Shown piece after piece: positions 7,157-43,235 of a DNA stretch of 64,000 nt. The stretch is taken from positions 73,160,001-73,224,000 of the forward strand of contig OX597830.1 of NCBI GenBank assembly GCA_951406725.2, given 5' to 3'. A program made the position numbers and the translations under genes. This stretch comes from Octopus vulgaris. Lineage: Eukaryota. The notes under the pieces were generated by a model. It saw only the letters and a list, made by a program, of their open reading frames with translations, made no database searches and had not been told where the DNA came from. Numbering within the stretch: the first letter of the stretch is position 1; every line of letters starts with the position of its first letter.

Positions 7157-7223
<67 letters not shown>

Positions 7224-7227
<4 letters not shown>

Positions 7228-7442
7228 AATAGTTAATCCAAACATGAAAACACAAAGAGAAAACACAACAACGCGAGGACGTGGAACGAATATAGTATTA
7301 TTGGATGCTCAGGAAAGAAGGGAAGAAGGAGGGTTTAACGTTTCGAGCGGAGCTCTTCGTCAGAAACATAGGAAAAAGTAAAAATCCAGAGAAGGGAAGA
7401 CAGAGGGAAAAAAATCCCCAACGGTACACACGGAGTCACATT

Positions 7443-8199: not shown

Positions 8200-8263
<64 letters not shown>

Positions 8264-8264
<1 letters not shown>

Positions 8265-8362
8265 CACGTGATCACGTGACCGACCAGACCATCAGATGTA
8301 GTTACACATCGCTGGTCACAATGCGTTCGCATTGTTTTAGCCTTCGAATGACGCCACCCCGC
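8264..8362 (-). mobile_element. Short (TA)n-embedded repeat, probably a truncated non-LTR element end (copy 1)
   Basis: Near-identical to 13849-13967. Both copies share the terminus TCACGTGATCACGTGA abutting (TA)n and differ in length at the other end. Strand is inferred from that asymmetry. Confidence 0.55.
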
Positions 8363-13848: not shown

Positions 13849-13855
<7 letters not shown>

Positions 13856-13967
13856 ATCACGTGACCGACCAGACCATCAGATGCTGTTACACATCGCTGG
13901 TCACAATGCGTTCGCATTGTTTTAGCCTTCGAATGACCCCACCCCGCTGGCTAAGCGTGCAGGCCAA
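13849..13967 (-). mobile_element. Short (TA)n-embedded repeat (copy 2 of the 8264 family)
   Basis: Same sequence as 8264-8362, extended by about 20 bp; flanked on both sides by (TA)n. Confidence 0.55.
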
Positions 13968-14466: not shown

Positions 14467-16095
14467 CAGTTGCAGCCAAAATATTCAGAACGGCATTGTT
14501 TTCGTCAGAAAAGTAGATATAATTTTTTATCAAATTTGTTTTATATTCTATAATTTTCACAGACAATAAATACAATATTATTTGTTATTGCCTGAGATTT
14601 TGGTGTAATTTAAGAGGATAATACAAAAGTTATGGAGGATTTAGGGATTTACTGCAAAACCCATGGCGGCCAGAATGATCAGAACGGTTGCTTTTACTCC
14701 GCGTTTTAGTATATTTAACCGGCGAACTCTAATGTTTTGAATTTGCTTACGTGACGGTTCGTTTACTAAACATTAGTAAGAATATTTGCAGTGTACTTTG
14801 TTAATATAATGCCACTTACTCCGTTACCAATTCGTCAGCAGATTATTAAGCTTCGAAGGAAGGATAATTTAAGTATTGGATCTATTGCAAAGATTGTTAA
14901 CAAGTCAAAGAGTGTTGTACACGGTGTTCTTAAGGTCTACGATGATTGTGGTTCGTGTGAAGCAAGAAAGTTTACAGGTAGGCCAAGAAAAACGACCAAG
15001 AGAGAAGATCGTGCTATGGTAAAGTTGGTTAAAAAGGTCAGATTTAAAACTGCTGCTGTTGTTTCTCGGAAAATGAGCATTGTATTGAAGAAAACTTTAT
15101 CTCGAAAAACTGTGTCTCGTCGTTTAGTTGAACATGACCTACAAGCAAGAGCACCTGCAGTGAAGCCACTGATCAGCTCCAAGAATAAAAAGTGTCGTCT
15201 TACCTTTGCAACCGAACATGTGCTGTGGTCTCAAGAAAAATGGCAAACGGTGCATTTCAGTGATGAATCTAAGTTTATGTTATTTGGCTCAGATGGGAAA
15301 AGGTAAGTTCATCGAAAAGTTGGTGAAAAATTGTCGCCTAAATGCCTTAAGACTAGTGTTAAATTCGGTGGAGGGAGTGTCATGGTTTGGGGGATGATAT
15401 CTGGAGATGGTGTGGGCCCTTTGGTGTGATTATATGGAAAGGTAAATGCAGGAGTTTATAAACAACTTGTAAAAGATCATGTCTTGCCTGTGCTGAGAAA
15501 TTCAACTAAGCGACCACCCATATTCATGCAGGACAATGCCCCATGTCTCAAGGCTAAGGTGATCATGAACTTCCTCAAGGCTGAAAAGGTTATTGTTATG
15601 GTTTGGCCTGCTCAAAGCCCAGATCTCAATCCTATTGAAAATGTGTGGAATATTCTAGGAGAACGTTCGAAAGCCAGAAATCCTAAAACAACTGAGCAAT
15701 TATGGAATGCCCTTCAGGAAGAATGGAATAAGATCATCCAGCAAGAAATTGAAAATTTAATTTCCTCATGCAGTCGAAGATGTCAGAGTGTGATTGAAGC
15801 TAAAGGGCTTCACACTAAATATTAAATAATTCCAGTATTCTCTGTCATTTTTGATTATTTTGTTATTTTTTCAACCATTCTGATCATTTTGGCCGCCATG
15901 GGTTTTGCAGTAAATCACTAAATCATCCATAACTTTTGTATTATCCTCTCAAATTACACCAAAATCTCAGACAATAACAATTAATATTGTATTTATTGTC
16001 TGTGAAAATTATAGAATCTAAAACAACTTTGATAAAAACTTATACCTACTTTTCTGACGAAAATAATGCCGTTCTGAACATTTTGACCGCAACTG
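14467..16095 (+). mobile_element. Full-length Tc1-family DNA transposon, IR/DR type (1629 bp)
   Basis: TA TSDs (14465-66, 16096-97) and CAGTTG termini. The 224-bp TIRs (14467-14690, 15872-16095) differ at about 15 positions by manual count, with no indels. Each TIR has outer and inner direct repeats (GCAGCCAAAATATTCAGAACGG / GCGGCCAGAATGATCAGAACGG). Confidence 0.97.
14809..15825 (+). pseudogene. Tc1 DD34E transposase pseudogene (338 codons, two in-frame stops)
   Basis: Single frame from ATG 14809 with an HTH region, GRPRK, FSDESKF, GGGSVMVWG and MQDNAP-(34 aa)-SPDLNPIENVW, ending GLHTKY. Premature stops are TAA 15304-06 and TGA 15427-29. Confidence 0.95.
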
Positions 16096-18159: not shown

Positions 18160-18657
18160 TGTCTCAACAAATAAAAGAGTAAGTACTGAAGGCGATGCTC
18201 CAGCATGGCAGGAGTTAATTGAGGGAAACAAATTAAAGAAAAAAATAAAAGAATATATATATATGTATATATATATATGTATTTATATATGTGTGTGTGT
18301 ATATATATATGTATATATATATGTACAATGCTTCGAATTCTTTAGAATTCACTAGAATCTCAATTACTTAACCGTATATATATATATGTATATATAAGTT
18401 TAACAATTAAGGATAATCTCTTAATAAGGGATCTTAACAAGAAATTATCGGGTAGCTAGCGTGAAAACCTCATAAAAGAAAAGAATCCGAAAATAATTTT
18501 TTTTTCTTTTGAACAAATTAATTATATCTATATTGTATAGAGGGCATTATTACACATAAATGCCTCACACTAGGAGGGACAAAGTCATTACTACCAAAAT
18601 TATACTAATCATACCCAAATGCAGTTTTTCAAAGCAAGACATTTAAAAAATGAATTT

Positions 18658-18715
18658 AGTTCTGTATCACCGTGATTTCACATTCAACTTACGTCTAATG
18701 ATCGTCAGCAGAACT
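18658..18715 (-). ncRNA. Type-I hammerhead ribozyme (left-arm copy)
   Basis: Mirror image of 18935-18992 on the minus strand. Confidence 0.72.
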
Positions 18716-18934
18716 GATTCTGAACACATCATAAATAAACTACCAACCTTACGTAGCGAAGACGAACAGACAACTGCTCACTCCGGCTAAGCACATGGAA
18801 TGTTTATAAATCATATATCGCCATTTACCGGATATATGATTTATAAACATTCCATGTGCTTAGCCGGAGTGAGCAGTTGTCTGTTCGTCTTCGCTACGTA
18901 AGGTTGGTAGTTTATTTATGATGTGTTCAGAATC

Positions 18935-18992
18935 AGTTCTGCTGACGATCATTAGACGTAAGTTGAATGTGAAATCACGGTGATACAGAACT
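18935..18992 (+). ncRNA. Type-I hammerhead ribozyme (right-arm copy)
   Basis: AGTTCTG CTGACGA T CATT-A-GAC GTAA GTT-G-AATG T GAA ATCAC G GTGAT A CAGAACT. This gives a 7-bp stem I, intact CUGANGA and GAA cores, a GNRA-capped stem II (U-U at its base), a stem III with 1-nt loop and the NUH triplet AUA. Confidence 0.75.
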
Positions 18993-19117
18993 AAATTCAT
19001 TTTTTAAATGTCTTGCTTTGAAAAACTGCATTTGGGTATGATTAGTATAATTTTGGTAGTAATGACTTTGTCCCTCCTAGTGTGAGGCATTTATGTGTAA
19101 TAATGCCCTCTATACAA

Positions 19118-19204
<87 letters not shown>

Positions 19205-19354
19205 ACCGGAGTAAACACTTAAATGTGAAACAAGGTGGAAAAACAAGAGTACTCAAATACCAGTGGTAGAGTAATATGCTTTATTTAAAGCAGCAGAAAA
19301 TTCTACAAAACCTGTTACTCTGAGTTTCGCGTTGCCGTTCATCGGAGTTTTTGC
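19205..19354 (-). mobile_element. (TA)n-embedded element with variant hammerhead (19307-19351)
   Basis: Minus strand: AAAACT CCGATGA ACG GCAA CGC GAA ACTC A GAGT A ACAGG. Related, more decayed copies lie at about 1050-1215 (opposite orientation, core deleted) and 12710-12806. Confidence 0.55.
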
Positions 19355-28301: not shown

Positions 28302-28960
28302 GACGGCGAGCTTGTAGAAACTTTAGCATACCGGACGAAATGCATAGCCGTATTTTCCTCTGCCGTTAAGTTCTGAGTTCAAATTCCGCCGAGATCGACT
28401 TTGCCTTTCATCCTTTCGGGCTCGATAAATTAAGTACCAGTTACGCACTAGCGTCGATATAATCGACTTAATCCGTTTGTCTGTCCTTGTTTGTCCTCTC
28501 TGTGTTTAACCCCTTGTGGGTAGTAAAGTAATAGGTATTTCGTCTGTCGCTACGTTCTGAGTTAAAAATTCCGCCGAGGTCGACTTTGCATTTCATCCTT
28601 TCGGGGTCAATTAAATAAGTACCAGTTACGCACTGGAGTCGATATAATCGGCTTAATCCGTTTGTCTGTCATTGTATGTCCTCTCTGTGTTTAACTCCTT
28701 GTGGGTAGTAAAGAAATATGTATTTCGTCTGTCTTTACGTTCTGAGTTCAAATTCCACCGAGGTCGACTTTGCCTTTCATCCTTTCGGGATTGATAAATT
28801 AAGTACCGGTTGTGCCTCAGTTCGAATTCCACCAAAGTCGGAGTTGGTGGAATTCGATCCCCTACAGTTGAGATCGACGAAATCAGTAGTACCACTTGAG
28901 CACTGGGGTCGGGTCAATGTAACCGATTTACAGCCTTCCCGAAACTGTTGCTCTTTTTCT
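28302..28960 (+). mobile_element. SINE family B tandem trimer (period ~185 bp)
   Basis: One head, then three core units starting at about 28352, 28536 and 28721. Junctions read GTAAAG(T/A)AATA(G/T)G|TATTTCGTCTG. Confidence 0.9.
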
Positions 28961-32040: not shown

Positions 32041-32098
32041 GAGTATGGATATCTATCTATATATGTATATCCATATATGTGTATACATGTACATACAT

Positions 32099-32310
32099 TT
32101 AAAAAGAAAAAGAGAAAACACAACAAGAGCCAAACGGGCGTACACGGTGAACGAATTTGACGCTCAGAGAAAGTTTGAAAATAGAGAGGATGTTTCCTTT
32201 AGAAGATAGCTCTTCGTCAGAAAGGCGAAAAAGGAAAAAGTCCAGGGAGAAAGAAAGGGAAGGTCCGTAAAGAGCACAACGTTGAAAATATGGCTGAAAA
32301 ATAGCTGACT
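32099..32310 (-). mobile_element. Microsatellite-embedded relative of the 7224-7447 element, degenerate hammerhead core
   Basis: Minus strand CCTTT CTGACGAAGAGC...GGAAACATCC (32188-32225); stem II is poorly formed. Confidence 0.45.
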
Positions 32311-32457
32311 TTACACACACACACACACATACATACACACATACAGATAGATTTATACATATATACATTCGTACATGCATACATATAAACATACTTACAT
32401 ACGGACATACATGCATACATATCTACACATATATACATACATACGTACGTACGTACA

Positions 32458-41072: not shown

Positions 41073-41594
41073 TGAGGCAGTCCAGAGAAGTGAGAGACTG
41101 CTGAGGGGAGGAGTAAAAATCTGGCAGTGAGACAGAGAGAGAGAGAGAGGAGACAATAGCGTGTGGGAGACAGTGTGAGGAAGAAAAAGAGACGGAGGAG
41201 GAGGAGGAGGAGGAGGAAAAGGAAGAGTGAGGCAATGAAAGAGTTTTGCTCTTTCTTATTGTTTGAACGTTTGTTTCTTTTTTTTTTAATTTTTATTATT
41301 ATTTACTTTGGAGAATACAACAAGCAAAGAGTGCCGGCTGGCTGGTTGGCTGGCTGGCTTACTTTTCAGCAGTGGTGAAGAAACGGACTGGAAGATAAGC
41401 AAGTGTTTTGTTTTTGTTATTTTTTTTTAACTGTTTAGAAGAAGACACAAGAAGAAGAGAAGGAGAAGGAAACGAAGAATAAAGATAATTTACAAAAAAA
41501 AAAAATAAAATAAAAGGAGGACAGAAGGAAAAAAATAAAAAAAAAAGAAAGAAGGAAGGAGTAAAGGCAGGAAGAAAAGAAAGAAAGAAGGAAG

Positions 41595-42891
41595 ATGGCG
41601 TCAGCTTTACACGCAGCTAACCCTGAAAGTTGGTCGCTGAAAACCCTACAACCGAACCGTCATCATTTATCGCCGTCCTTAATGCAACAGACCCTCCAGG
41701 CCCACACAAATATCAGTGTGAACAATCATTTGGCACATGTAAATTCGCCCCATGTTAATTCGCATTCACAAACACATGTAAATTCAAATTCACATGCAAG
41801 CGGACAGGCAAATGCACAAACACATGTACATATGCAACTGCACCCGGCCCACAGCAGCAGTAACAACATCAGTAATAGTATTAATAATAGTAATAGTAGT
41901 AGTAATAATATAACTAATAACAGTAGTAGTAATAGCAACAGCAGTAACACTAGTAGTTGTAGTAGTAATAGTAATAATAATGGTAATAGTGGTACTAATA
42001 ATAATAGCACGGCCCCTGTTCCTGCACTGACGAATACAATCGCTAATCCTGTTTCGACCCCGAATTTAGTTCCGGGTGGATCAACATCATCACCACCGGC
42101 AGCGGTAGCAGCAGCAGCATCAACAGTGGCAGCAACAGCAGTGTCAGCAAGAACATCACCAGTAGCAGCAGCAGCATCAGCAGCAGCATCAGTGACAGCG
42201 GCAGTAATAGCGGCCCTGCCAGCAGCACCGCCGTCACTACCATCCCATCATCAACAACAACAACAGCAACCTGCCCATCACAACCCTGTTCAACATCATT
42301 TACAGCAACACCAACTACAACAACAACAACAAGCTCACACACATCAAACTCATTCTCTGTTGAGTCCCCTGCATCACCACCCCCATCAACAACAACAACA
42401 ACACCAGCATCCCAGTTCACAACATCTTCACCAACAACCCATACACCAAAACCCTCCACCATCACATATACAATCACACCCGCAGCATCACCAGCAACAC
42501 CATCAGCAACCACATCACCAACAACAGCATCATCATCATCAGCAACAACAACAACAACATCAACAGCATCCACACTTACAACAGATGTCTCCACCCGGCG
42601 CTGCGGGTGTCTTGTCTGGCAGCGTTCTGGGGAAGCACTATCTACAAAACGGACATGCTCTCCAGGGGAACCCTCTCCTCGCAGCAGCGAACGCTTATAA
42701 CGAGAGGGCGGCTTACTGTTCCTACTTGCAGAATGGACTGGATTCTCGCAATAACCCTGAAATGACAGCAGCAACAGCGACAACAGTCCACCCTTATTCA
42801 CACAACCCGTTATCTCAGCAACATATACCGGCCCCTAGAAGTCCACCCGAAGATCACAACTCTGTTTTTTACCCATGGATGGGAATTGTTG
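41595..42891 (+). CDS. Lox4: First coding exon of a central-class (Ubx/abd-A-like, lophotrochozoan Lox4/Lox2) Hox transcription factor
   Basis: 432 open codons from a good-context ATG (AAGATGG), with N/S-, A- and Q/H-rich tracts. It ends NSVFYPWMGIVG (PBX-binding hexapeptide, YPWM at 42870-81; compare Ubx FYPWMAIAG), directly followed by the donor G|GTAAGT (phase 1). The Hox identity is strong, but Lox4 versus Lox2 is uncertain without the homeobox. Confidence 0.85.
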
Positions 42892-43235
42892 GTAAGTAAA
42901 AAGTTACAGATCTAATCTACCTTTGTGCGTGTTTATTTACATACAGTAAATAAATTAAATACATATAAAATATGTGTATATGCATGTATACATATACATA
43001 TAATGTATATATATATATATATTGTTCGCAATATAAGGAACATAACATATATATATATATTATATATATATAAAATAATGATATTTAGATTGTAAAAAGA
43101 TAAAAATATCTGGCGCATAAAATATTGGTGTAACGCTCTTGCTCGCTATCTTTTACAAACATGCATACACATACACAATACAAAAACAAAACTGTTTACA
43201 TATTTATGTCAGTGTATATCTGCACACACACACGC

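Follow-up and report, generated by a model that had tools for sequence, protein, structure and literature searches.

Insertions of Penelope-like elements (PLEs) are known to contain a 5'-truncated copy in inverted orientation, to carry a tail at just one of their ends and to favour (TA)n targets (PMC8557442). Palindromic junctions between head-to-head copies were interpreted in 2013 as products of self-priming, and the target-site duplications (TSDs) reported with them measure 8-10 bp (PMC3846280). The element PAc has two reverse transcriptase (RT) start sites which delimit the tail, and both target strands were cut and extended in vitro (PMC11167929). Pairs of hammerhead ribozymes on opposite strands, 100-700 bp apart, were described in 2014 (PMC4209133). 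Lastly, non-coding tandem hammerhead units are known as non-LTR retrozymes, and these have been proposed to use Penelope enzymes (PMC7229834).

Here, we analysed a locus in a 64-kb stretch of DNA (the window) which combines features of these systems. Its two inverted, 5'-truncated copies stand head-to-head, as in PLE insertions. The tail is likewise one-sided, opposite a short end that recurs in the family, and it measures 126-132 nt, compared with the usual 30-40 bp. The AT-rich target consists of (TA)n on both flanks, and the loose ends of other copies also run into (TA)n. Thus, the head-to-head copies, the one-sided tail and the (TA)n flanks support the Penelope-like architecture that the initial annotation of this DNA had proposed.

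Layout of the palindrome and its neighbourhood

The palindrome measures 593 bp in total, and its two arms are exactly complementary over 291 bp, with 0 mismatches, around an 11-nt spacer (Table 1). When extended, the arms reach 297 nt at 99% identity. Both flanks are (TA)n, and the left arm continues into a 132-bp extension that has no counterpart on the right. The ribozyme-sense copies point outward, away from each other, and the organisation of the locus is inverted, not tandem. The initial annotation had claimed mismatch-free 291-bp arms with an 11-nt spacer, embedding in (TA)n, outward orientation and a left extension of about 130 bp, and all of this was found as described, with exact coordinates now assigned.

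An exact-arm inverted-repeat scan of the 64-kb window (arm at least 18, spacer at most 100, simple arms dropped) returned the palindrome and one 18-bp pair only. Within the same window, blastn found no further copy of the palindrome family. The RNA of the whole element was predicted to fold at -548 kcal/mol. Rfam microRNA matches at the centre (mir-789, mir-9436) were far under the gathering score, and reflect the hairpin only. A MITE or other DNA transposon was ruled out, since the inverted repeats are internal and abutting and one end of the element is unpaired.

Table 1. Positions of the palindromic insertion, its parts and the neighbouring Hox exon in the window
Feature	Position	Strand	Remark
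Left (TA)n target tract	18375-18396	.	Last 10-15 bp (18382/18387-18396, one G) are the left half of the candidate target-site duplication
132-bp 3' tail of the family, left copy only	18397-18528	-	Contigs of all 4 runs cover 18405-18528; 18397-18404 lie in the repeat-skipped part
Left arm, 5'-truncated family copy, ribozyme sense on minus	18529-18819	-	Putative product of foldback copying
Type I hammerhead, mirror copy	18658-18715	-	Predicted cut after 18665
Near-private base T, mirrored as A at 18862	18788	+	Family runs have C
11-nt loop, family sequence in right-copy sense	18820-18830	+	Sits at the natural CCG / 8-nt / CGG mini-hairpin
Right arm, 5'-truncated family copy, tail-less	18831-19121	+	Stops about 6 nt before the recurrent short end of the family
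Type I hammerhead	18935-18992	+	Core 18942-18948 and 18971-18974; predicted cut after 18985
Right (TA)n tract	19117-19205	.	19117/19122-19131 are the right half of the candidate duplication; 5 nt overlap with the element end
Hox first coding exon	41565-42899, start near 41592	+	Q/H/A/S/N runs; ends FYPWM-GIVG

We found that a stretch of 10-15 bp, a TA run with a single G, flanks the element at both ends and represents a candidate TSD. The same motif occurs near 13 of the 271 TA-tract starts in the window (about 5%), so the support that it lends to a target duplication is modest.

The palindrome is located about 22 kb upstream of a Hox exon, and nothing links the insertion to this gene. Relatives of the exon share 50-52% identity with it over the C-terminal 106 aa, and among solved structures the homeodomain of one of them (P0002) comes closest to Ubx/abd-A. 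A cluster look-up yielded no name for these relatives. The rest of the 64-kb window yielded no homeodomain motif. The exon near 41592, with its FYPWM hexapeptide, is Lox4-like and probably represents Lox4; together with SINE-like repeats, it suggests an octopus as the host.

Several other repeats were observed in the window. A separate element of about 240 bp, located between (TA)n runs at 7200-7435 (minus strand, core 7363), carries a minimal Penelope-type hammerhead in which the core is followed by an extra A, stem II has 4 bp and is closed by G-C, and a palindromic 6-mer takes the place of stem III. A diverged relative of this element at 32080-32330 (minus strand, core 32220) is 81% alike over 43 nt, and its ribozyme is degraded. 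Two open frames of 178 and 131 aa at 14770-15825 (plus strand) are presumably halves of a Tc1/mariner transposase. A tandem array at 28354-28811 (185-bp unit, 2.5 copies, 88% matches) looks to us like repeated pieces of a SINE-like element. The frames at about 8250-8360 and 13850-13960 have a common peptide stretch between (TA)n, suggesting another short dispersed inserter into TA tracts.

The hammerhead motif and its family

Each arm contains the hammerhead core CUGACGA...GAAA...UA, with a stem I of 7 bp, a stem II of 4 bp and an AUA triplet that ends at 18985 in the right arm. Stem III is palindromic, with 3-5 bp and one central unpaired base. The following elements of a type I hammerhead are present: the CUGANGA box (18942-18948), GAAA (18971-18974), a UH site (18984-18985) and three helices, of which helix I is open-ended. 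A hammerhead in each arm, as initially claimed, is therefore borne out by the complete core and helices, but it has a U.U in stem II and a sub-threshold Rfam score. Specifically, the closing pair G10.1-C11.1 of helix II is absent, with U.U in its place, and we found no common variant at these positions across the family depth in the examined runs. A U.U at the base of helix II was reported for the axolotl hammerhead HHR_Amex2, which cut 22% in 1 h alone and cut better as a dimer (PMC7229834).

Rfam gave no match at the gathering score, and there was no hammerhead among the 25 Rfam matches at E <=10 on 1 kb. For the 96-nt motif, Hammerhead_1 (RF00163) was the sole match, with 14.5 bits compared to a gathering score of 34 (E 0.48). 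Dinucleotide shuffling of the 423-nt left copy yielded the loose descriptor once in 20,000 shuffles and a match as good as the observed one in 0 of 20,000, with descriptor thresholds that were chosen after the motif was seen.

The isolated motif folded no better than shuffles (z -0.2), and the pair probability of stem III was about 0.06 in the monomer. The predicted fold contains a bulge in an extended stem I and a 12-nt loop II. For the monomer, the catalytic fold was computed at -8.8 kcal/mol and the free fold at -11.5 kcal/mol, a gap of 2.7. For the dimer with stem III swapped, the catalytic-like fold reached -34.1 kcal/mol against -34.7 kcal/mol for the free fold, a gap of 0.6. Such a small gap is consistent with a ribozyme that works as a dimer on multimeric RNA, as animal hammerheads do (PMC4209133), and these modelled energies suggest that the ribozyme probably acts on the multimeric RNA of the family as a dimer. 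Since 8 of 9 Xenopus retrozyme dimers did not cleave in vitro (preprint 10.64898/2026.07.22.740005), activity of the predicted ribozyme cannot be assumed here.

To describe the family, we used public sequencing runs. At least half of 48 sampled words (query 18323-18845) were contained in 18 of the 24 listed runs, which span 5 organism labels and 9 study codes and include runs of just 27-61 million letters. This broad presence, even in very small runs, is the behaviour of a very abundant repeat. Four of the 24 listed runs were compared, all as contigs (X1, X2, X7 and X8, the RNA label of X7 being a guess); runs X19 and X20 (word shares 0.06 and 0.04) were not used. The family was fitted by 2237 contig records in X1, 758 in X8, 1106 in X2 and 3 in X7, where 76-80% of X1 and X8 was read and summed contig depths do not equal copy numbers.

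The runs cover the family over 18405-18819, and 18323-18404, which includes the long end of the tail, was skipped as repeat. Because family cover reaches 18405, the 132 bp beyond the left arm belong to the family's own 3' part. Among the matches listed, copies stop at 18523 and continue as (TA)n in at least 36 records of X1 and at least 15 of X8. This recurrent short end is located within about 6 nt of the right-arm end. Record 17 of X7 (510 nt) runs through 18453-18819, then 67 letters, then 18405-18482, so that the sequence repeats after 480 nt and overlaps itself by 30 nt. An overlap of 30 nt at this period is the expectation for a circle or tandem in a 31-mer graph, and from this one contig of one run we infer a circular or tandem unit of 480 nt.

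The GC content is 0.33 over the 434 nt visible in the window, of about 480. There is no stop-free stretch longer than 36 codons in sense or 47 in antisense over these 434 nt, and no Pfam family (0) was found in any of the 6 frames read through stops. None of the frames that open within or downstream of the ribozyme stays open across the tail. RT and GIY-YIG sequences are absent from the locus, so the ORF with telomerase-like RT and GIY-YIG that defines an autonomous PLE is absent as well. In contrast, the non-coding character and a GC content below 50%, which define non-LTR retrozymes, were both found. Metagenome scans with exact and degenerate ribozyme patterns gave 0 loci. Judged by its sequence, the family looks non-autonomous, non-coding and very high-copy, and it is likely a member of the retrozymes. 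Among the papers listed for cephalopods, none describes such a family in its title or the start of its abstract; supplements (including those of the 2014 and 2020 hammerhead papers), Repbase and Dfam may list it.

Loose ends at 18580, 18618, 18651, 18671 and 18705 (X1, X2, X7) indicate at least one related subfamily with the same core and ends and a different middle. With pairing that we infer across records, the contigs suggest that the subfamilies retain the core, with an altered middle of stem III and a G-C or G-U pair closing stem II.

Age and origin of the insertion

Aligned with the X7 family contig across 18453-18819, the window shows a single substitution and, in an A/T run, 2 gap letters. 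The one substitution, at 18788, occurs in both arms. The family base C accounts for 361089 of 361886 depth in X1, 74745 of 74745 in X8, 300991 of 301769 in X2 and 26.8 of 26.8 in X7, and thus for 99.7-100% of the family depth in all four runs. A near-private base in both arms suggests that one arm was probably copied from the other at integration. By this comparison with its relatives, the copy is young and its arms are from one template. A young single-template event yields identical arms by itself, so arm-to-arm conversion is unneeded. Two explanations had been offered at first, a recent foldback or conversion: the single substitution common to both arms supports the recent foldback, and the conversion is not needed.

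The centre of the palindrome was compared with the family in the same way. Among the matches listed, loose ends behind 18819 (at least 5 records in X2 and at least 2 in X8) open with the reverse complement of the spacer. This match indicates that the spacer is family sequence in the right-copy sense and that the 5' truncations of the two copies lie 11 nt apart. According to the X2 loose ends, the family centre consists of a CCG/CGG stem of 3 bp with an 8-nt loop. The X8 loose-end consensus differs by one letter, an A in first place, and copies with this A would lack an intact mini-hairpin. The centre in the window equals the family mini-hairpin minus one C, which is one fewer than a clean foldback predicts. 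One X2 contig (depth 21.5, 20-letter short side) joins the tail end at 18533 directly to the centre (18819) with the full CCG/CGG stem, and could be a short-arm foldback, a deletion product of a similar palindrome or a collapsed palindrome. An X1 contig shows a joint from 18623 to 18826.

Taking these results together, we consider the locus to be probably, though not certainly, a young 5'-truncated insertion of a high-copy, non-coding hammerhead element (about 480 nt, retrozyme-like) that was mobilised in trans by a Penelope-type RT/endonuclease, with the palindrome built at integration. In the proposed mechanism, the endonuclease would make staggered nicks in the TA tract, about 10-15 bp apart. 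A cDNA primed at the right flank would begin at the short start site, cross the ribozyme and halt just beyond the 3-bp mini-hairpin. Its 3' end would then fold back, and the RT would copy its own cDNA into an identical inverted arm. Since the loop has the cDNA orientation on the strand from the tail-less end, a cDNA start at this end is the simplest account, and foldback with copying would explain both the identical arms and the common rare base. Because the tail cannot come from the strand that begins at the tail-less end, it requires another origin, and the simplest candidate is a second cDNA that would have been primed at the long start site on the opposite target strand. Joining of the foldback strand to this second cDNA would account for the tail and for both ends. 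The X2 contig may represent a foldback that had copied only a few bases before it switched to the second cDNA, or else a later deletion. Alternatively, the endonuclease could have cut back a full hairpin at the short site, a route that PMC8557442 suggests for tails. The two-cDNA and trimming routes both predict the same loop polarity.

Points against this origin include the 480-nt unit, which exceeds the 150-450 bp range given for retrozyme repeats in PMC7229834, and the tail, which is far longer than 30-40 bp. Furthermore, the locus has no RT or GIY-YIG, and mobilisation by Penelope enzymes is proposed from the architecture.

The same foldback could have acted on the pseudo-LTR stump of an autonomous PLE, with the 480-nt loop arising from short partial tandems. 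All structural hallmarks fit published autonomous PLE insertions, which are mostly 5'-truncated (preprint 10.64898/2026.07.22.740005), and beyond 18819 the family sequence is seen for 30 letters only. But the one contig among those listed that covers the whole unit returns to its own start after 480 nt without an ORF, there is no Pfam match, and no frame extends from the ribozyme across the tail; in PAc, by contrast, stem II is where the ORF begins. We therefore regard a stump as unlikely, while giving it some weight.

An assembly or library artefact, either a foldback chimera or polishing that copied one arm onto the other, has to be weighed as well, because very high-copy families confuse assemblers (PMC8557442). 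The exact centre and the flank junctions of the window were spanned by none of the 29 pieces listed (4097 more were matched), positions 18827-18845 are uncovered in X8, and no run contains more than 0.79 of the words. Missing cover of the centre and left flank in X1, X8 and X2 was not counted as absence, given that contigs drop rare variants. A simple foldback chimera would mirror the flank or give the loop in the tail-bearing sense, and neither was observed. The locus has a candidate target duplication and a right end close to a biological end that recurs in the family, and the X2 contig, with a depth like that of a single locus, has the centre at the same site. Polishing could still account for the perfect identity alone. 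Overall, an artefact appears improbable.

We give still less credence to two copies joined head-to-head, or to an older palindrome kept identical by arm-to-arm conversion. Each copy has family sequence that is absent from the other (the loop in one, the tail in the other), and a near-private base in both arms is also expected if conversion follows a mutation in one arm. However, one substitution relative to the X7 contig leaves little time for divergence and little need for conversion, and truncations 11 nt apart at a natural mini-hairpin point to coupling at synthesis.

The palindrome would also shape any RNA made across it. Whichever strand is read through, synthesis of the antisense arm precedes that of the ribozyme, and the computed cost of forming the hammerhead stems is about 92 kcal/mol. 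This order of synthesis and this cost suggest a ribozyme that would be blocked in read-through RNA, not one that competes. The initial annotation had expected self-cleavage to compete with the duplex, and this expectation does not hold for read-through RNA: only transcripts that start 3' of the mirrored ribozyme (18720 onward, plus strand) could fold it, at a computed cost of 1-6 kcal/mol. Any one strand has a single ribozyme, so there is no dimer partner at the locus. The silencing of a family by dsRNA from such repeats is, by analogy, not a new idea, since in Drosophila siRNAs match the inverted regions of Penelope copies, where silencing was not efficient (PMC3681739).

A functional locus, acting as a hairpin RNA that silences the family or as a regulatory element for the Hox gene downstream, would draw on the 291-bp duplex that read-through RNA would form, on the published siRNAs from Penelope inverted repeats (PMC3681739) and on the nearby exon of Ubx/abd-A class, but we found no evidence of transcription at the locus, the insertion is so recent that conservation cannot be expected, the Drosophila siRNAs silenced inefficiently (PMC3681739) and one locus among very many copies would hardly decide the silencing of a family, so this is the explanation in which we place the least belief.

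Under the trans-mobilised, foldback-built insertion that we favour, the locus itself is most likely a dead-on-arrival passenger. More tentatively, and with more doubt than confidence, we suggest that the family is an undescribed retrozyme of the host lineage whose dispersed copies bear the full Penelope signature and whose palindromes follow a polarity rule. If so, the copies would provide insertion-level evidence for retrozyme mobilisation by Penelope enzymes. Under the polarity rule, the loop would always be read in the direction of the tail-less copy and private bases would occur in both arms, revealing a two-primer mechanism in which a short-start cDNA folds back at a fixed mini-hairpin and a long-start cDNA is added. 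With many young copies, the mechanism of Penelope integration would become testable from one genome.

Comparison with known systems

Both the architecture of the locus and its dsRNA consequence are already published for Penelope-like elements. A single locus matters little, and this one is of value as a young and clean specimen. From the orientation of its loop, its near-private base and its two ends, one can read the sequence of steps in a Penelope-type integration, which is described as unresolved in PMC8557442 and PMC11167929. The family may also tie retrozymes to the Penelope machinery by insertion structure, a link for which the present support is co-occurrence and phylogeny.

Compared with the PLE insertions of PMC3846280 and PMC8557442, the locus is alike in its head-to-head truncated copies, the palindrome at the junction, the one-sided tail, the AT-rich or (TA)n target and the hammerhead in the repeat, and its candidate duplication of 10-15 bp may correspond to their duplications near 10 bp. 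It differs in having no RT/GIY-YIG ORF, in a tail of 126-132 nt instead of 30-40 bp and in an insert that consists of two stumps only.

The non-LTR retrozymes (PMC7229834, 10.64898/2026.07.22.740005) resemble the family in being non-coding, low in GC and high in copy number, with one type I hammerhead, and the likeness in head-to-tail or circular organisation rests on one contig. Unlike them, the unit here has 480 nt, above 150-450 bp, and the locus is inverted instead of tandem. The words 'inverted' and 'antisense' are absent from the main text of PMC7229834.

In Schistosoma, the hammerhead pairs of PMC4209133 are likewise two ribozymes on opposite strands about 100-700 bp apart, and they were attributed to truncated PLEs. 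Those hammerheads are minimal, with G10.1-C11.1 and almost no helix III, whereas the motif here has a longer palindromic helix III and the U.U. The inverted-repeat copies of Penelope in Drosophila (PMC3681739) are similar in being rearranged copies whose long inverted repeat could form dsRNA.

For the Poseidon element PAc of Anolis (PMC11167929), we found that the two RT starts, the extension of both strands and the AT-rich cuts match the two ends observed here. PAc is autonomous, with an ORF that starts inside the ribozyme, and foldback arms are not described in the sections of PMC11167929 covered here. Its ribozyme needed protein for cutting and was dispensable for insertion (PMC11167929).
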